A stretch of 64,000 nt of DNA from an uncultured Actinomycetota bacterium. GTDB taxonomy: Bacteria; Actinomycetota; Actinomycetes; Jiangellales; Jiangellaceae. Each line of letters begins with the position of its first letter. The stretch's first letter is position 1. The stretch lies in assembly GCA_963819885.1 (NCBI GenBank), contig CAWFXV010000003.1, positions 4,372 to 68,371 on the forward strand. Direction: 5' to 3'. Made by a program: the position numbers and the translations under genes. Below, in pieces: positions 34,159-47,591 of the stretch. Under the pieces are notes generated by a model that saw only the letters and a program-made list of their open reading frames with translations, did no database searches and was not told the DNA's origin.

Positions 34159-34374
34159 ATGGAGAAGACGACGGTCTACCTGCCCGGCGAACTCAAGGAC
34201 GCCGTGAAGAGCGCGGCACGTCGCCGCCGTGTGTCGGAGGCAACAGTGATCCGGGACGCCATTCGGGCGGCCGTCGCCCCGGACCGGCCACGACCTCGAC
34301 CGGGGCTGTTCGCGAGCAAGGCTCCGATGGGCGAGCGCGTCGATGAGTTGCTGGCCGGGTTCGGCGAGCGGTGA
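34159..34374 (+). CDS. vapB: type II antitoxin VapB (CopG/RHH)
   Basis: 71 aa. RHH pattern KTTVYLPGELKDAVKSAARRRRVSEATVIRDAI. 4-nt overlap with vapC. Confidence 0.85.
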   Translation: MEKTTVYLPGELKDAVKSAARRRRVSEATVIRDAIRAAVAPDRPRPRPGLFASKAPMGERVDELLAGFGER

Positions 34375-34778
34375 TCGTCGACACGAGCGCCTTGCTGGCA
34401 TTCTTCGACCGAACCGAGCCTCGTCACGACTCAACCGTCATGGCGATGACCTCCGAGCGCGGACCCCTGGTGGTATCGCCGTATGTATTCGCCGAACTGG
34501 ATTACCTGGTCGCAACACGCCTCGGCGTCGACACCGAGGTGGCCGTTCTGCGCGAGCTGGCCGGTGGCGCGTGGGAGCTTGCATCGCTGGACAACGACGA
34601 CGCCTTACGCGCGGCCTCGGTCATCGAGAAGTACCCGGATCAGGCGATCGGTTTGGCAGACGCGTCGATCGTCGTTCTCGCCGACCGCTATGGAACCCGA
34701 CGGATTGCCACGCTCGACCGCCGTCACTTTGGCGTGCTCCGGCCACTGCAGGGCGGACGCTTCACCATCGTGCCGTGA
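34371..34778 (+). CDS. vapC: type II toxin VapC (PIN-domain ribonuclease)
   Basis: 135 aa. PIN acidic residues in context (MIVDTSALLAFF, ...FAELDYL..., GLADASIVVLA, ATLDRRHF). Confidence 0.88.
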   Translation: MIVDTSALLAFFDRTEPRHDSTVMAMTSERGPLVVSPYVFAELDYLVATRLGVDTEVAVLRELAGGAWELASLDNDDALRAASVIEKYPDQAIGLADASIVVLADRYGTRRIATLDRRHFGVLRPLQGGRFTIVP

Positions 34779-34801
34779 GTGTCCAGCCTTACGGTAGGGC
34801 C

Positions 34802-35999
34802 GTGTCGACGACCCTCGTGGGCAACATCGGGCTGCTCCTCACCGGTTCGACCGATTACGGTGACGGATCACCGCTCGGTGAGATGGCCGATGCTGCGCTG
34901 GTGTTCGGCGACGACGGCCGGGTGGCGTGGGTCGGAGCAAACCGGCGTGCCCCGGCTGCCGACTCTTGGGTCGACGCCGGGGGACGATGTGTGCTGCCGG
35001 GTTTCGTCGACAGCCATTCCCATCTGGTCTTCGCGGGCGACCGAGCGGCGGAGTTCGACGCCCGGATGGCCGGGCGCCGGTACGAAGCGGGCGGTATCCG
35101 GACGACTGTTGCCGCCACACGCGCGGCCTCGGACGAGGACGCTCGCCGACAACCTGGCCCGGCTCGTCGCAGAGATGCGCCGGCAAGGCACGACGACCGT
35201 GGAGATCAAGAGCGGCTACGGATTGACGGTTCGGGACGAGGCCCGCGCGTTGGCGCTGGCGAAGTCTCACGACGGACGAGACGACCTACCTGGGCGCGCA
35301 CGTCGTGCCCGTCAGAGTATGCCGACGATACAGGCGGCGTACGTCAAGCTCGTCACCGGGGAGATGCTCGATGCCTGCGCGCCGCACGCCCGCTGGGTCG
35401 ACGTCTTCTGCGAGCGAGGGCGCCTTCGATGCTGATGCCGCGCGCGCGGTCCTCACCGCAGGGATGGAGCCGAGGTCTGCAGGCGCGAGTCCACGCCAAC
35501 CAGCTCGGGGAGGGCCCGGGCGTGCAGCTGGCCTGCGAGCTCGGTGCCGCCAGCGCGGACCACTGCACGTTTCTGACCGATGCGGACGTCGACGCGTTGG
35601 CGGCGTCGGGAACTGTCGTCGACGCTGCTACCCGGCGTCGAGTTCTCGACCCGATCTCCGTACCCCGACGCCCGCCGACTGCTCGGCGCCGGGGTCACGG
35701 TCGCGCTCGCGACCGACTGCAATCCCGGCTCGTGCTTCACCTCGTCGATGCCGTTCTGCATCGCGTTGGCAGTTCGCGAGATGCGGATGACCCCGGCCGA
35801 GGCCGTGTGGTCAGCGACCGTCGGTGGTGCGGCCGCGCTACGCCGAGCCGACGTCGGGCGCCTGGTCCCCGGTGCGCGAGCCGACTTTGTCGTTCTCGAC
35901 GCACCGTCGTATGTGCACCTGGCGTACCGCCCTGGCGTCCCGTTGGTCACCGAGACCCGGCAGGGCGGTCGACCCTCGAGCACACCCCGTCTTCGCTGA
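34802..35999 (+). pseudogene. hutI: imidazolonepropionase, at least 7 frameshifts
   Basis: Homology hops between frames. The segments are: [12 protein letters not shown]...[19 protein letters not shown]...TRAASDED (frame 2); [28 protein letters not shown] (0); [13 protein letters not shown] (1); SEYADDTGG (2); [10 protein letters not shown]...WVDVFCERG (0); [14 protein letters not shown] (1); [34 protein letters not shown] (2); LLPGVEFS...[10 protein letters not shown]...[10 protein letters not shown] (0). Confidence 0.88.
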
Positions 36000-36175
36000 A
36001 TAACTCCGCGTTTGGGGCCGGGTTATCGGCCCGCTGAGAAGGGCAACTTCGCGAAGGTCCGCCCCGTAGTAGGCCGCTTGTCGTCGCCCTAGGGCAGGGG
36101 AAGCTACCGGCTTTCTCCACGTCTCCCGGCTCGGACGGCGTGGTAAACCCTCCAGTCGCGCAGGAGTATTCGCGG

Positions 36176-37475: not shown

Positions 37476-37637
37476 CCATCGCTCCTTTCGTCAGACGCGC
37501 CGGGCGCTGCGCCGGCGTCTCCTCTGCTCTGCAGGTTCTCCCACATCGGTGAACTGCTCGATACATCGTCACGGATCTGATGTCAGCGGGTCTTGAACGA
37601 TTGCTCACCGGTGCGGGTCCGCAAGGTGCGGCGACGG

Positions 37638-38381
37638 TCACCCAAGGTTCCGGTCGGCATAGACCTTCATCGCGTCTCGAACGAGCGCTGCGGTGCCCTC
37701 ACCGTGCTGGTCGTAGTTCGCCATGAAGCGCGCGTCGGTGACGTACATCTCGCCGAGGCCGACGAGGTATTCCCGGGTCGGCGCCGATGTGATCGACAGC
37801 CAGTCGACCTGACGTGCGGTGATGGCTTGTACCTGTTCGCTTTCGGGTGCCAGCCCAGCGCGCTGCGCTCGGCCGTAGTCCGCAGCGATCTCGCGCTGCT
37901 GGCGCTGGAAGGCTGCCCTGTCTTCGGCGGACAACGATCGCCACCAGCGGTCACCTGCCTCGTAGGCCTCCCTTCCCCACCGCTCGGTGACTTCCTGCTC
38001 GTACTGGGTGTGATCGAAGCCGTCGAACGCCTCGGCTGGCATCAGTTGCTCACCTCTCTCGATCTTGTGCAAGGTTCCCTTTATCGATTGGATCTGCCGC
38101 CCGATGCGTTCGCGCTCGGCCTCCAGCAGGTCCAAGTGGGTGCGCAGGGCAGCTACGGTGTCCCGCCCACCCTCGAGGACCTGTGCGATTGCCGGCAGGC
38201 CGAGGCCCAGCTCCCGCAGCAGCAGGATCTGCTGCAACCGCACCAGAGAATTCTGGTCGTAATAGCGGTAACCGTTTCCACCGGTCCGGCTGGGCTCGAG
38301 CAATCCCAGCTGACCGTAGTGGCGCAGGGTGCGGCTCGTCGTGCCGGCCGCCCGCGCGATCTCCTGAATCGACCACTCCAC
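37638..38381 (-). CDS. MerR-family transcriptional regulator with C-terminal TipAS-type ligand-recognition domain
   Basis: 247 aa, GTG start. N-terminal winged HTH IQEIARAAGTTSRTLRHYGQLGLL..GYRYY, a coiled-coil dimerisation helix, then a TipAS-like domain (FDHTQYEQEVTERWG...LGEMYVTDARF...). The protein contains no cysteine. Confidence 0.88.
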   Translation of the reverse strand: MEWSIQEIARAAGTTSRTLRHYGQLGLLEPSRTGGNGYRYYDQNSLVRLQQILLLRELGLGLPAIAQVLEGGRDTVAALRTHLDLLEAERERIGRQIQSIKGTLHKIERGEQLMPAEAFDGFDHTQYEQEVTERWGREAYEAGDRWWRSLSAEDRAAFQRQQREIAADYGRAQRAGLAPESEQVQAITARQVDWLSITSAPTREYLVGLGEMYVTDARFMANYDQHGEGTAALVRDAMKVYADRNLG

Positions 38382-38391
38382 CGATATCGCC

Positions 38392-38422
38392 TTGACCTTG
38401 ACGCAACGTCAAGATTTAGCCT
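38392..38422 (+). promoter_or_regulatory. MerR-type promoter: -35 TTGACC, 19-bp spacer containing a perfect dyad, -10 TAGCCT
   Basis: TTGACC (38392..38397), 19-nt spacer (38398..38416), TAGCCT (38417..38422). The dyad CTTGACG-CAA-CGTCAAG spans 38397..38413. The ATG of the L11 paralog lies 9 nt after the -10 box, which implies a leaderless or near-leaderless mRNA. Confidence 0.6.
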
Positions 38423-38431
38423 ACCAGAATC

Positions 38432-38860
38432 ATGTCGCCCACCCAGCGGGTTGCCGCCGTCATCACCATCCAGCTCGAGGCCGGGCAGGCCAACATGGCC
38501 AAGGTGGGCCAGGCCCTCGGCCCGCACGGGATCAACCTGGTCGAGGTCGTCCGCAGCTATGACGCAGCCACCGCGAACCAGCGCGGGGAGATCGTCCCAG
38601 CGGTCGTCACCATTGACGAGGACCGGTCGTTCTCCCTCGTCACCAAGACCCCACCAACCTCTGCGTTGCTCCGCCAGGCAGCCGGACTCACCAAAGGCGC
38701 CCCACGCCCCAACGGTGTCCCGGTCGCCACGTTGACCCGAGCCCAGGTCCGTGAGGTTGCCCGGCGCAAGCTGCCCGATCTGAACACCGATGACCTGGAT
38801 GCGGCTGAGAAGACCGTCGCCGGCACGGCTCGTTCCATGGGAATCGCGATCGCCGGCTGA
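38432..38860 (+). CDS. ribosomal protein L11 (uL11) paralog with a divergent, proline-less N-terminal domain
   Basis: 142 aa, colinear with bacterial L11. C-terminal rRNA-binding domain motifs are retained (DRSFSLVTKTPPTSALL, DLDAAEKTVAGTARSMGIAI). The N-terminal domain reads IQLEAGQANMAKVGQALGPHGINL where canonical L11 has AG.ANP.PP.GPALGQ.G.N. The Lys-rich N-terminus is replaced by MSPTQR. The gene is not in a nusG-rplK-rplA context. Confidence 0.85.
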   Translation: MSPTQRVAAVITIQLEAGQANMAKVGQALGPHGINLVEVVRSYDAATANQRGEIVPAVVTIDEDRSFSLVTKTPPTSALLRQAAGLTKGAPRPNGVPVATLTRAQVREVARRKLPDLNTDDLDAAEKTVAGTARSMGIAIAG

Positions 38861-39121
38861 GCGCGACGTCGACTTCGTTGGGGAATCGCGGCCGTGAGTC
38901 AGGGCCGCCTGCGGAGCGGCGATACCTCGGATCGGTCCTGGTTTGGATGGTTTGTGGAACCGCTCGCCGTGCCAATTCAAACACCCGTGCCCTAGATGCG
39001 GGTCAAGTCAGGCATATTGACACGCAGTGATCACCGCGGTACGAAGCATCGGGGCGACGTCGACCTAGCCGGGGCCGGCGAGTCGCACCGAACAATCGGC
39101 AGGCGCGAGGGGTGGGTGTCG

Positions 39122-43441: not shown

Positions 43442-45342
<1,901 letters not shown>

Positions 45343-45346
<4 letters not shown>

Positions 45347-45984
45347 CCGACCGCGACCAGCCCACCGGGTTCGACCGGGAGGCCGACGAAACCGTCGGCC
45401 CGGTGGTCCACGATCGCCGTCGAATCGACCCGGAGACCGGACAACTGCGAAAGGGCGCGGCCGCGAGCCGGGCTGCCGGTGACACCGAGCCGACCAGCAG
45501 CAACCCGCTGGAAGCAGCTCGGGCGGAGGCAGCCGAGCGGCTCGATGACCTACGGCGGCTGCAGGCCGAGTACGTCAACTATCGGCGCCGGGTCGAGCGG
45601 GACCGCGACACCGCACGCGAGAACGCCGTCGCATCCGTGCTGCTCGACCTGCTGCCGGTGCTCGACGACATCGGCCGGGCTCGCGATCACGGCGACCTGA
45701 CCGGTGGATTCCGCTCGGTGGCCGATGCGTTCGAGGCGACGGTGACCAAGCTCGGACTCGAGCGGTACGGCGAGCCGGGTGATCCGTTCAACCCGACGGT
45801 GCACGAAGCGCTGATGCACGAGTACTCCGACGAGGTCGAAGTCCCGACGTGCACGCAGATCCTGATGCCCGGCTACCGGTACGGCAGCCGCATCCTGCGC
45901 CCGGCCAGGGTCGCCGTTGCGGAACCCACCGAAGCACTGCCGGTGAACGACGATGCCAGCGTTGTCGACTCCGACGAGGACTGA
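45343..45984 (+). CDS. grpE: nucleotide exchange factor GrpE
   Basis: 213 aa. The GTG start overlaps the dnaK stop. [19 protein letters not shown]...GFRSV...FNPTVHEAL. Confidence 0.93.
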
Positions 45985-46020
45985 GCACTGGTTGTTGGCT
46001 GACGGAGAGGAGGGACGTCG

Positions 46021-47187
46021 ATGAGCACGAAGGACTGGCTTGAAAAGGACTACTACAAGATCCTCGGCGTCCCCAAGGATGCCGACGCGGCGAGGATCAA
46101 GAAGGCGTATCGCAACCTGGCCCGGGATCTGCACCCGGACCACAACTCGGCCGACAAAGCCGCCGAGACGCGGTTCAAGGAAGTGTCCGAGGCGTATTCG
46201 GTGCTGTCCAACGCGGACAAGCGCAAGGAGTATGACGAGGCGCGGTCACTGTTCGGCAGCGGCTTCCGGGTGCCAACCGGGGCGGGCTCCAGTTCAGGAG
46301 GTTCGTTCAACTTCGACCTCGGTGATCTGTTCGGCGGGCAGACGCCTGGTGGGCAGGGCGGCGGGCTTGGCGACGTGTTCGGCGGCCTGTTCGGGCAGCG
46401 ATCCCGCACCACTCAGCCGCGCCGCGGAGCCGACATCGAAAGCGACGTCACGATCGGCTTCACCGAGGCCGTCGACGGCGTCACGGTGCCGCTGCGAATG
46501 ACCAGTGCCTCGGCATGCACGGCGTGCGCCGGGACCGGGGCCCGGGCCGGTACGGTGCCCCGCGTCTGCCCCACGTGCGGCGGCACCGGGCACACCAGCA
46601 GGGAGGCGGGCGGCCGGTTTTCGCTGTCCGAGCCCTGCCGCGAGTGCAAGGGCCGCGGGCTGGTCGTCGACGATCCGTGTCCGGTCTGCAACGGCTCGGG
46701 CAGGGGCACGACCAGTCGGGTGATGCGCGTTCGCATCCCTGGTGGTGTCCGCGACGGTCAGCGCATCCGGCTCAAGGGCAAGGGAGCCCCGGGTGAGCGC
46801 GGTGGACCGGCTGGCGACCTCTACGTCAGCGTGCACGTCTCCCCGCATCCGGTATTCGGCCGGCGGGGTGAACATCTCACCGTCACCGTGCCGGTGACCT
46901 TCCCCGAGGCAACCCTGGGCGCTGAGGTCAAGGTACCGACGCTGAACGGTGCGCCGGTGACGCTGAAGATTCCGGCCGGGACACCGAACGGTCGCACGTT
47001 TCGGGTTCGCGGGCGGGGGGCCGCGCGCCCGGATGGCACCCGGGGTGACCTGCTCGCGACGGTCGAGATCATGGTCCCGCAGCGGGTGGACGGTCAGGCC
47101 AAGGAGGCTCTGGAGACCTTCCGGGACGCGACGTCCGGCGACGACATCCGGGCCGAGCTGATGAAGTCGGCGCAGAAGGGCGGCTGA
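46021..47187 (+). CDS. dnaJ: co-chaperone DnaJ
   Basis: J domain DYYKILGV...HPD, G/F-rich linker, four CxxCxGxG zinc-finger repeats (CTACAGTG, CPTCGGTG, CRECKGRG, CPVCNGSG). Confidence 0.96.
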   Translation: MSTKDWLEKDYYKILGVPKDADAARIKKAYRNLARDLHPDHNSADKAAETRFKEVSEAYSVLSNADKRKEYDEARSLFGSGFRVPTGAGSSSGGSFNFDLGDLFGGQTPGGQGGGLGDVFGGLFGQRSRTTQPRRGADIESDVTIGFTEAVDGVTVPLRMTSASACTACAGTGARAGTVPRVCPTCGGTGHTSREAGGRFSLSEPCRECKGRGLVVDDPCPVCNGSGRGTTSRVMRVRIPGGVRDGQRIRLKGKGAPGERGGPAGDLYVSVHVSPHPVFGRRGEHLTVTVPVTFPEATLGAEVKVPTLNGAPVTLKIPAGTPNGRTFRVRGRGAARPDGTRGDLLATVEIMVPQRVDGQAKEALETFRDATSGDDIRAELMKSAQKGG

Positions 47188-47189
47188 CG

Positions 47190-47591
47190 ATGGACGCCGG
47201 CTCCCGCTTCGTCGTCACCGTGACCGGGGCCGCCCGTCGAGTCCGCGACGACGAGCCGCTCTACGTCATCTCGGTGGCGGCCGAGATGGCCGGCATGCAT
47301 CCGCAGACGCTGCGACAGTACGACCGGCTGGGCCTGGTTTCTCCCGGCCGAGCCGGTGGGGGCAGCCGCAGGTACTCCCGACGCGATATCGAGCTGTTGC
47401 GCGAGGTTCAGCGCCTGTCCCAAGAAGAGGGCGTCAACCTCGCTGGCATCAAGCGCATCCTCGAGCTCGAGGCCGAGCTCGACGCTGTCCGGGAGCGGTT
47501 GGCAGAGCTCAGCGCCGAGTTCTCCTGGCTCGCCACCAAGGTTGCTCCGCACACCCTGGCCCGCTGGCAGCCCCCGCGCATGCTCACCTGA
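47190..47591 (+). CDS. hspR: heat-shock transcriptional repressor HspR (MerR family)
   Basis: LYVISVAAEMAGMHPQTLRQYDRLGLVSPGR..GGSRRYSRRDIELLREVQRL. Last gene of the dnaK operon. Cognate HAIR sites are present. Confidence 0.92.
   Translation: MDAGSRFVVTVTGAARRVRDDEPLYVISVAAEMAGMHPQTLRQYDRLGLVSPGRAGGGSRRYSRRDIELLREVQRLSQEEGVNLAGIKRILELEAELDAVRERLAELSAEFSWLATKVAPHTLARWQPPRMLT

Follow-up and report, generated by a model that had tools for sequence, protein, structure and literature searches.

What is a gene for ribosomal protein L11 doing back to back with a MerR regulator, outside the operon in which L11 is canonically encoded? The gene lies in a 64-kb stretch of DNA (64,000 nucleotides; "the window" below means this whole stretch) from a soil actinobacterium, for which a preliminary description had proposed a sensor coupled to a spare drug target, an architecture of which it knew no report. 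We likewise found no paper describing a MerR/L11-paralog pairing. The reading towards which we lean slightly is that the two genes form a ligand-switched ribosome-remodelling module, that is, a spare, drug-insensitive uL11 switched on by a ligand. Such a pair would probably let the cell exchange in a drug-insensitive ribosome part on demand.

The uL11 paralog and its thiopeptide-contact loop

The gene and the parts of its product discussed here are the following.

38432..38860, + strand: uL11 paralog gene, 142 aa plus stop (Pfam, TIGR01632)
38480..38530, + strand: rewritten thiopeptide-contact loop and helix, residues 17-33, AGQANMA-KVGQALGPHG (column contrast)
38645..38851, + strand: C-terminal 23S-rRNA-binding domain, residues 72-140 (PF00298, 1-69 of 69; conserved)

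The product had been described as a 142-aa protein colinear with L11 that keeps the C-terminal rRNA-binding motifs, and both points stood. The coordinates and both Pfam L11 domains agree (Ribosomal_L11_N, PF03946, 62.5 bits against a cutoff of 32.9; Ribosomal_L11, PF00298, 84.9 bits against 21.4), PF00298 is matched over its full length, and KTPPTSALL, AGTARSMGI and AGQANMAKVGQALGPHGIN are all found. On TIGR01632 (L11_bact) the protein passes marginally, with a score of 147.3 against a cutoff of 141.85; canonical actinobacterial L11 proteins score 185-211. The lysine-rich N-terminus was said to be gone, which is true of this protein (MSPTQRVA versus MPPKKKVA) but not of the whole paralog family, in which P0043 begins with MPPKKKI. 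The protein P0122 is identical to the one in the window. The current annotation of the paralog is simply "50S ribosomal protein L11". The AlphaFold model (pLDDT 88.6) confidently predicts that the two-domain L11 fold is kept, and Foldseek aligned it to ribosome-bound uL11 at TM 0.86-0.92 (M. smegmatis uL11, 5o60_J, TM 0.92, rmsd 1.5 Å).

A neighbour-joining tree of 204 sequences set the paralogs apart from 61 canonical L11s in one split, and in this tree the protein belongs to a clade separate from canonical rplK. Mean identity was 0.54 between paralogs and canonical sequences and 0.62-0.74 among paralogs. The clade comprises ~140 protein clusters, mostly from soil metagenomes, and is under purifying selection, with dN/dS values of 0.15-0.25 between the window's protein and clade-1 members.

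The conserved uL11 segment A-x-P-A-P-P-V-G-P reads ANMA-KVGQ in the paralog. Aligned to the M. smegmatis and T. thermophilus uL11, the canonical PAPPVGP becomes MA-KVGQ, so the earlier statement that four prolines are replaced and the segment is one residue shorter was borne out. In T. thermophilus numbering, P19 is changed to M, P21 is deleted, P22 is changed to K and P25 to Q; the Q29 position is also altered, to Pro (P31). Column contrast of 143 paralogs with 60 canonical sequences showed that the changes extend across the clade (P21 deleted in 98%, P22->K in 92%, P25->Q in 94%). A DNA pattern for the loop, found in the window at 38480..38536, matched 12 of the 12 paralog loci then in hand and none of the three canonical loci (L004-L006). 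Clade-wide changes also occur outside the drug pocket (E56->V, F67->L and F37->V), and the positions of T. thermophilus K3 and K39, which we take to be the PrmA methylation sites, are Arg in ~70% of the paralogs. K39 is the residue mutated in the PrmA-L11 complex structure 3cjr.

Thiostrepton resistance mutations map to L11 prolines 22, 23 and 26 (PMC1802607), deletion of Pro22 in B. subtilis L11 confers persiathiacin resistance with a growth defect, and both thiostrepton and nosiheptide touch L11 at P21, P25 and Q29 (PMC11731312). By alignment, the residues altered in the paralog coincide with the three prolines of the known thiostrepton resistance mutations (PMC1802607, PMC11731312).

A protein with a marginal TIGR01632 score might stay off the ribosome altogether, as an RNA-binding regulator, a decoy or a decaying duplicate. 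We consider this very unlikely: decay is disfavoured by the dN/dS values and the conservation of the clusters, the rRNA-binding motifs KTPP and AGTARSMG are nearly invariant (at least 97% conservation among the 143 paralogs) within a full two-domain fold, and a decoy for the drug could not do without the very drug-binding surface that the paralog has lost.

The gene stands alone, as initially reported. Around it lie genes for a RibD_C protein, the MerR regulator and an M14 peptidase; neither nusG nor rplA lies near it in the 64-kb window, and it is outside the secE-nusG-rplK-rplA order, for which we used comparison loci (Tsukamurella L047, L050). Genes in the window were called by a simple ORF/GC3 filter. 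We found no YcaO or dehydratase by Pfam among ten proteins at ~30.3-47.6 kb and recognised none by eye among the window's other ORFs; there is no thiopeptide gene cluster near the locus.

No second L11 gene was found within the 64-kb window either. Because canonical rplK is missing from this span, the gene could be the organism's sole uL11, a relocated and divergent housekeeping gene with no spare. A similar shortened loop in some actinobacterial L11 genes of canonical secE-nusG-rplK-rplA context (L025/L039, L050) would fit this explanation, and indicates that such a loop is compatible with ribosome function. These canonical-context variants, however, score 185-189 bits on TIGR01632 against 147 for the paralog, and the paralog clade occurs in Mycobacteriales and Pseudonocardia MAGs, and cultured Mycobacteriales retain PAPPVGP in an L11 encoded in the canonical context.

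The divergent regulator and the shared intergenic region

On the opposite strand, and in the gap between the two genes (38382..38431, 50 bp), we distinguished the following features.

37638..38381, - strand: TipA-class MerR regulator gene, 247 aa, GTG start, no cysteine (Pfam MerR_1 and TipAS)
38172..38372, - strand: MerR winged-HTH DNA-binding domain, residues 4-70 (PF13411, PF00376)
37659..38003, - strand: TipAS-type effector domain, residues 127-241 (PF07739, 114.2 bits, 1-117 of 117)
38040..38042, - strand: conserved in-frame Met114 codon, putative start of a possible short TipAS-only isoform
38392..38397, + strand: -35 hexamer TTGACC of the L11-paralog promoter (read from the sequence)
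38397..38413, no strand: operator dyad CTTGACG-CAA-CGTCAAG in the 19-nt spacer (38398..38416) (from the sequence; conserved type)
38417..38422, + strand: -10 hexamer TAGCCT, 9 nt before the ATG

Pfam (MerR_1, PF13411, 63 bits) and the sequence both agree with the description of an opposite-strand MerR protein with a TipAS-like C-terminus and without cysteine, 50 bp from the L11 gene; cysteine is also absent from the orthologs at L008, L010 and L011. Among solved structures, its best relatives are SkgA (7cla, E 3e-33), Lmo0526 (3qao), MtaN, TipAN (2vz4) and TipAS (2mbz, E 5e-11), the matches to SkgA and Lmo0526 being full-length. By these matches TipAL is a more distant relative of the regulator than SkgA and Lmo0526 are, and thiopeptide sensing is therefore something that we infer. 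Its orthologs, 77-83% identical in the N-terminal domain and 65-72% in the TipAS domain, adjoin L11 paralogs at L008, L010-12 and L026/29/34/36.

The tipA gene has two start codons that give TipAL and TipAS (PMC7762955). The Met114 codon, kept in six of the six TipAS-type L11-linked regulators and preceded by a purine-rich, SD-like GAGAGAGGTGAGC or GAGGAGAAGGAGC, is possibly the start of a comparable short isoform, although the purine run could merely reflect E/R/K/G codons.

The L11-paralog mRNA would be leaderless or near-leaderless. Of 33 distinct regions upstream of paralog genes, 30 contain TTGNNN-N19-TANNNT with a dyad in the spacer, versus 0.4% of shuffles. This arrangement is the signature of MerR activation, since MerR-activated promoters are defined by 19-20 bp spacers that hold a palindrome (PMC9909328). 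The core TTGACC.T.ACG...CGT.A is common to the window operator and the pmta, pskgA and ptipA probes (PMC7762955); counted by eye, 17 of 26 positions match pmta and 18 of 26 match pskgA. The operator originally predicted at 38392..38422 is accordingly a classic MerR promoter, with a 19-nt spacer and an internal dyad, and resembles these probes. We found no sigma-70 promoter with a 16-18 nt spacer in 37500..39100, no Rfam match and no intrinsic terminator in the locus, and no promoter of the regulator's own in the 50-bp gap.

The promoter also bears on the idea of a sole uL11: a MerR promoter with a 19-nt spacer is expected to be weak without inducer, which is implausible for an abundant ribosomal protein. 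Together with the position of the gene outside its usual operon, this leaves the explanation extremely unlikely, and a canonical rplK would be expected elsewhere in the genome.

Recurrence of the pair and its possible role

We found a divergent upstream MerR gene in 24-25 of 27 distinct non-canonical loci, while the remaining flanking genes vary. The linkage is thus conserved in many uncultured relatives, as the original idea required. Chance is far from explaining the arrangement, given that dozens of independent loci share both the pairing and the promoter. Three loci (L015 and L035/L044) retain the operator without an adjacent MerR gene, which counts against a two-gene module.

TipAS itself, first taken as the defining partner, proved not to be so: it is the sensor at only about one fifth of the loci. 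In about four fifths, the MerR protein carries a different, unannotated helical sensor domain and has its own operator. The operator type co-varies with the sensor, TTGACG..CGTCAA going with TipAS (dyads of this type are also found at L008, L010-12, L026/29 and L035/44) and CTCCAG..CTGGAG with the other domain. We rejected, as unproven, the idea that the second sensor is a remote TipAS (a weak local hhalign match, E 0.036 over 52 columns; Pfam E 0.1); its confident AlphaFold model gave PDB matches through the MerR N-domain only. Homologs of this sensor in the cultured genera Kitasatospora and Longispora are encoded beside haem genes (hemY/hemQ), so an L11 linkage in these genera was rejected. 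A search of PLSDB plasmids recovered no clade member; what it matched was either TclQ-like genes or canonical rplK from mislabelled chromosomes. The contig search with eight-residue patterns of a single L11 protein was dominated by chance matches and yielded only three canonical L11 loci.

The same pair could be explained by a MerR protein that senses general stress or another xenobiotic, on the model of SkgA (stationary phase, KatG) or Mta (multidrug efflux). The variant uL11 would then retune the GTPase-associated centre, possibly through weaker RelA activation or altered factor or PrmA interactions, and thiopeptide insensitivity would be a by-product. The L11 N-domain is required for RelA activation, and both the clade-wide changes outside the pocket and the frequent Arg at the K3/K39 positions would fit. 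So would the prevalence of the other sensor, with its haem-associated homologs, and the regulator's nearest solved relatives, SkgA and Lmo0526 rather than TipAL: their signals are not thiopeptides and the thiopeptide-reactive cysteine of TipAL is absent, two points that also weigh against the module proposed here. We nonetheless regard a stress role as unlikely, since the changes that are most diagnostic hit the three prolines that define thiopeptide resistance, no ligands of that uL11 surface are known except thiopeptides, and TipA-class domains are established antibiotic binders (PMC7762955).

For the preferred reading, a ligand-activated switch for a spare uL11, we envisage the following. 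A regulator dimer would sit on the CTTGACG-CAA-CGTCAAG dyad, which lies in the excessively long spacer (19 nt) between TTGACC and TAGCCT of the divergent promoter, and without ligand the L11-paralog promoter would be little used. A hydrophobic ligand in the TipAS domain would cause the regulator to untwist the spacer and turn on the leaderless mRNA of the variant uL11; the likeliest ligand would be a thiopeptide from a neighbouring microbe, held non-covalently because the regulator has no cysteine. Since the variant keeps its fold and the C-terminal domain, by which L11 is anchored to H43/H44 of 23S rRNA, it would replace housekeeping uL11 at the GTPase-associated centre, presenting an N-terminal helix without P21, P22, P25 and, in the window's protein, Q29. 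On the protein side, the thiostrepton/nosiheptide/micrococcin pocket is formed by these four residues. Ribosomes with the variant should escape thiopeptide inhibition, and its default-off state would avoid the cost to growth that L11 N-domain mutants are known to pay.

More broadly, and more tentatively, soil Actinomycetota that make no thiopeptides may widely resist them in this way: a MerR protein that senses the antibiotic would switch on a spare uL11 with a rewritten drug-contact helix by way of at least two sensor domains (TipAS and a new helical domain without Pfam or PDB match), each with its own operator. We would put this generalisation a shade under an even chance. As most members have the different sensor, with no PDB match and relatives by haem genes, a single shared ligand class is not assured.

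Interest in thiopeptides such as thiostrepton, nosiheptide, micrococcin, nocathiacin and persiathiacin as agents against MRSA and tuberculosis has revived. Resistance to them is known to arise by rRNA methylation, by rplK mutations that are costly, and through immunity paralogs in producer clusters. If our reading is right, non-producers would have a fourth route in the sensor-gated spare L11, which would also be a new gene family in the environmental thiopeptide resistome. It would spare the fitness cost and be mobilisable in principle, so resistome screens should recognise such genes. It would also be a clean case of ribosome composition altered by a small-molecule signal, and would give TipA-class regulators, known mostly for self-induction and drug sequestration, a physiological, target-level output. 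The other type of sensor may prove to be a novel domain for antibiotic binding. The module, two genes and a 50-bp promoter, is small enough for testing, and would offer a compact, portable promoter/regulator pair that may respond to thiopeptides.

Comparison with known systems

TclQ and TclT of thiocillin/micrococcin clusters (Bacillus cereus ATCC 14579, staphylococcal plasmids) are likewise extra L11 proteins besides rplK and are thought to protect from L11-targeting thiopeptides by target replacement (PMC10704990); the MerR/uL11-paralog pair would be a variant form of this target-paralog immunity. The TclQ/TclT genes lie inside the producer's biosynthetic cluster, as in an S. aureus plasmid locus (L046) where a TclQ-like L11 gene is beside YcaO, dehydratase and precursor-peptide genes, whereas the uL11 paralog is in an ordinary chromosomal context without a cluster. 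The staphylococcal TclQ-like protein is 44% identical to the paralog and belongs to a different clade. It keeps PAPPVG, whereas the paralog has a shorter loop without the prolines, so the analogy to TclQ drawn in the preliminary description does not extend to proline loss, which speaks against our reading. We found no MerR gene annotated within ~6 kb of the L046 TclQ-like gene, nor a MerR switch for TclQ/TclT genes in the literature that we found.

TipAL/TipAS (Streptomyces lividans), Mta (B. subtilis) and SkgA (Caulobacter) combine the same MerR HTH and TipAS effector domain, and their operator is placed in a promoter with a long spacer and has the same core as in the window. The TipA, Mta and SkgA systems are autoregulated, and Mta also drives efflux genes. 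The published probes are named as the regulators' own promoters (tipA, mta, skgA; PMC7762955), whereas here the operator would drive a divergent ribosomal-protein gene. The second in-frame start of TipAL/TipAS is possible in the window's regulator; covalent capture of thiopeptides by cysteine, another feature of TipAL/TipAS, is not, as the regulator has no cysteine.

Spontaneous rplK mutants and the L11 of the producer Actinokineospora sp. UTMC 2448 have the same contact residues lost or replaced (PMC1802607, PMC11731312). The Actinokineospora protein carries P21V, P25K and Q29P (PMC11731312), the last shared with the window's paralog (P31). We rejected this persiathiacin-producer L11 as a clade member: it has no deletion and its changes are spaced differently, so the variant is a distinct one. 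With the Val-type paralog P0060 as seed, a search recovered no protein assigned to Actinokineospora by name. Unlike the uL11 paralog, the rplK mutants and the Actinokineospora L11 are alleles of the one housekeeping gene; their expression is constant, and they often carry a cost.

The Zur-regulated swap of ribosomal paralogs is well established and, to our knowledge, does not include L11. The alternative (C-) ribosomal proteins of mycobacteria and Streptomyces are likewise exchanged conditionally by a dedicated transcription factor (cf. PMC13548396), but there the signal is zinc, Zur is a repressor and the proteins are of the zinc-ribbon type, whereas here an activator-type MerR is coupled to a drug-target surface. 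The merR-merT(PAD) system of Tn21/Tn501 likewise has the regulator divergent from the activated gene and the dyad in a 19-bp spacer (PMC9909328). It binds a metal ligand through cysteines and drives detoxification genes, whereas the pair described here joins an effector domain of the organic-ligand type to a ribosomal-protein output.

The L11 paralog, its loop and its clade

The preliminary description had reported an L11 gene at 38432-38860(+), and it is present there; its 142-aa product scores 62.5 and 84.9 bits against the two L11 domains of Pfam. It passes the NCBI L11 equivalog model TIGR01632 narrowly (147.3 bits vs a cutoff of 141.85); canonical actinobacterial L11 reach 185-211 bits. 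In alignments with uL11 of known structure (M. smegmatis and T. thermophilus) and with canonical Tsukamurella and Thermobifida L11, it has A-N-M-A-(gap)-K-V-G-Q-A-L-G-P-H-G where the canonical loop is A-N-P-A-P-P-V-G-P-A-L-G-Q-H-G, that is, P19 to M, P21 deleted, P22 to K, P25 to Q and Q29 to P (T. thermophilus numbering), which confirms the reported loss of four prolines and of one residue. The AlphaFold model (48 sequences in the alignment, pLDDT 88.6) superposes on ribosome-bound uL11 with TM 0.86-0.92 (rmsd 1.5 Å to M. smegmatis 5o60_J). No second L11-like gene was found within the 64-kb window.

Searching a database with the window protein, we found about 90 clusters that are 60-99% identical to it, all with the shortened loop, and canonical PAPPVG proteins solely below about 58% identity. 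In a neighbour-joining tree of 204 L11 sequences, a single split separates 125 motif-defined paralogs and 16 other loop variants from 61 canonical sequences. The paralogs form two sub-clades, one with P19 changed (usually to Met, including the window protein) and one with P19 kept; common to both are the deletion, K at 22 and Q at 25, which are also the most diagnostic columns (98%, 92% and 94% of paralogs); E56V, F67L and A117T are diagnostic too. The rRNA-binding motifs KTPP and AGTARSMG are at least 97% conserved, and comparing the window gene with others of clade 1 gives dN/dS of 0.15-0.25. Judged by these comparisons, the L11 paralogs are a distinct, constrained clade. Those of its members that have a name come from MAGs with the labels Mycobacteriales and Pseudonocardia, and we found no cultured isolate.

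The counterparts of T. thermophilus K3 and K39, which we take to be the PrmA methylation sites of L11, are Arg in about 70% of the paralogs (R6, 38447-38449, and R41, 38552-38554, in the window); on that assumption, the spare L11 may escape methylation. K39 is the residue mutated in the PrmA-L11 complex structure 3cjr. Another standalone L11 variant (L048:4001-4420(+), P0198), with the loop AGDAPMVDLGKMLG, scores 132.5 bits, below the TIGR01632 cutoff; a GNAT acetyltransferase-like gene, not a MerR gene, lies divergent to it.

Three indirect arguments make the window paralog a probable spare: it lies outside the canonical context, its promoter is of a type with little activity in the absence of an inducer, and cultured Mycobacteriales have the canonical loop. 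Three L11 genes in secE-nusG-rplK-rplA(-rplJ-rplL) context (L025:2908-3336(-), L039:1698-2126(-) and L050:4001-4432(+)), otherwise canonical (TIGR01632 185-189 bits), nevertheless have shortened, paralog-like loops (AGSANPAKVGQSLG and AGTANPASVGQALG). These loops may have been acquired from a paralog, or may reflect constitutive resistance that arose by convergence. Their presence in canonical-context genes indicates that such a loop can serve in a housekeeping L11, and therefore supports the ribosome competence of the spare L11.

The divergent regulator and the promoter

In the 247-aa product of 37638-38381(-), a MerR HTH is joined to a TipAS domain that is matched over its full length (Pfam, 114 bits). 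The protein has no cysteine, and its start codon lies 50 bp from that of the L11 paralog, in agreement with the earlier reading. SkgA (E 3e-33) and Lmo0526 are nearer relatives of it than TipAS is (E 5e-11); because of this, and since it has no reactive cysteine, the identity of its inducer is something we only infer. An internal Met (Met114, 38040-38042(-)) stands where the TipAS domain begins and is conserved in 6/6 TipAS-type L11-linked regulators, preceded by an SD-like run of purines; by analogy with tipA, a start there could yield a short drug-sequestering isoform.

Upstream of the L11 gene we detected the following elements:
38392-38397, -35 element TTGACC
38398-38416, 19-nt spacer between the two elements, containing CTTGACG-CAA-CGTCAAG
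38417-38422, -10 element TAGCCT, followed by 9 nt and the ATG

MerR-activated promoters are defined by a 19-20 bp spacer with a palindrome inside, and spacer shortening abolishes MerR regulation (PMC9909328). The pattern TTGNNN-N19-TANNNT with a spacer dyad was identified in 30/33 distinct paralog upstream regions vs 0.4% of shuffled controls, and in the L11/regulator locus a promoter with a spacer of 16-18 nt was not detectable. The dyad co-varies with the sensor: TTGACG-n-CGTCAA with TipAS and CTCCAG-n4-CTGGAG with the other type. Of the 30 regions with this promoter, 17 have the -10 at 6-9 nt before the ATG, implying leaderless mRNAs; the remaining 13 have it 37-40 nt upstream, together with an AGGAG-like sequence near the start. 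The 26-bp core in the window shares TTGACC.T.ACG...CGT.A with the mta, skgA and tipA probes; those are named as the promoter of each regulator itself (PMC7762955), whereas the predicted window operator drives the divergent L11 gene.

MerR linkage and sensor types

On contigs with paralogs of 57-79% identity, a divergent MerR gene adjoins L11 while the remaining flanks vary. With a degenerate nucleotide pattern built on the paralog loop, which matched 12/12 paralog loci and 0/3 canonical ones (L004-L006), we retrieved 30 further metagenome loci. From all loci, tblastn and ORF extraction gave 27 that are distinct, non-canonical and have upstream DNA; a divergent MerR gene is present in 24 of them and a remnant in one more. 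MerR is thus conserved across these loci but its sensor varies: TipAS occurs in just five locus groups, the window included. The other L11-linked MerRs (L001:4932-5975(-), L013:2960-3919(-), L014:2966-3904(-) and about 20 more loci) end in a domain of about 200 aa without Pfam match, 36-45% identical among themselves and with weak hints of similarity to TipAS. It is all-helical in a confident model (P0216, pLDDT 91.9) and had no PDB match, whole-chain Foldseek matching via the MerR N-domain only. Homologs in cultured Kitasatospora and Longispora adjoin hemY, hemQ and hemE, not L11.

Some loci depart from this arrangement. L015 (3223-3915(-)) has a divergent ArsR-type neighbour and L035/L044 a co-directional MarR gene; all keep the operator and MerR-type promoter without an adjacent MerR and may be served in trans by their cognate MerR. 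The loci in which a MarR gene replaces MerR are:
L035, 439-870(+) and 905-1327(+), paralog locus with MarR gene
L044, 610-1029(-) and 153-575(-), paralog locus with MarR gene

In the 1111-bp contig L019, the MerR HTH appears deleted (18 N-terminal residues, then the TipAS domain) and the paralog promoter carries the other, non-TipAS operator type, so we regard it as a mosaic locus. Directly downstream of the paralog in L013 and L014, both of the non-TipAS type, an ABC transporter pair (ABC_tran and ABC2_membrane; L013:4500-6862, L014:4474-6271) lies on the opposite strand and may be a second resistance arm; L013 has a second MerR gene near it.

Thiopeptide reading and known systems

The window is ordinary chromosome, with amidohydrolase genes, an MMPL transporter, a RibD_C protein, an M14 peptidase, hut-like genes and clpB (the last two recognised by eye only), and:
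34159-34778, VapB(RHH)/VapC(PIN) toxin-antitoxin pair
43442-47591, cluster with HSP70 (DnaK) first and a second MerR-family gene last (47190-47591), read as dnaK-grpE-dnaJ-hspR with grpE, dnaJ and HspR assigned by eye

Overlapping ORFs at about 34.3-36.0 kb (34343-36037) look like a candidate frameshifted amidohydrolase-type gene. No thiopeptide biosynthetic cluster was recognised in the window (Pfam on ten proteins at about 30.3-47.6 kb, other ORFs by eye), and the module resembles a defence carried by a non-producer.

Thiostrepton-resistant L11 mutations affect N-domain prolines 22, 23 and 26, beside the drug macrocycle and A1067 (PMC1802607), the same three that are deleted or replaced in the window paralog. 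In D. radiodurans L11, the residues in contact with thiostrepton and nosiheptide include P21, P25 and Q29; the L11 of a producer has P21V, P25K and Q29P; and B. subtilis whose L11 lacks Pro22 shows high-level resistance to persiathiacin but grows more slowly (PMC11731312). TipA-class domains bind antibiotics (PMC7762955), and in thiocillin producers L11 paralogs have been proposed to confer immunity (PMC10704990). Given the resistance prolines, antibiotic binding by TipA and immunity L11 paralogs, the most economical reading is that a thiopeptide would induce expression of a thiopeptide-insensitive spare L11. The slower growth that comes with lesions in the L11 N-domain would be a reason to keep the gene off by default. 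We place high confidence in the regulatory architecture (divergent MerR and MerR-type promoter), moderate confidence in ribosome replacement and resistance by the paralog, and lower confidence in a thiopeptide as inducer; the full mechanism, a MerR-switched, drug-insensitive spare L11, seems to us slightly favoured on balance.

The analogy drawn earlier to TclQ-type variants by proline loss does not carry over: the one staphylococcal TclQ-like L11 examined keeps PAPPVG and the window clade does not, so the clade is not simply TclQ in actinomycetes. A full-text literature search found no published description of a MerR- or TipA-controlled L11 paralog, and the preliminary description likewise knew of none. 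Resistant target paralogs and TipA sensors are already known separately; what appears to be new is their pairing.
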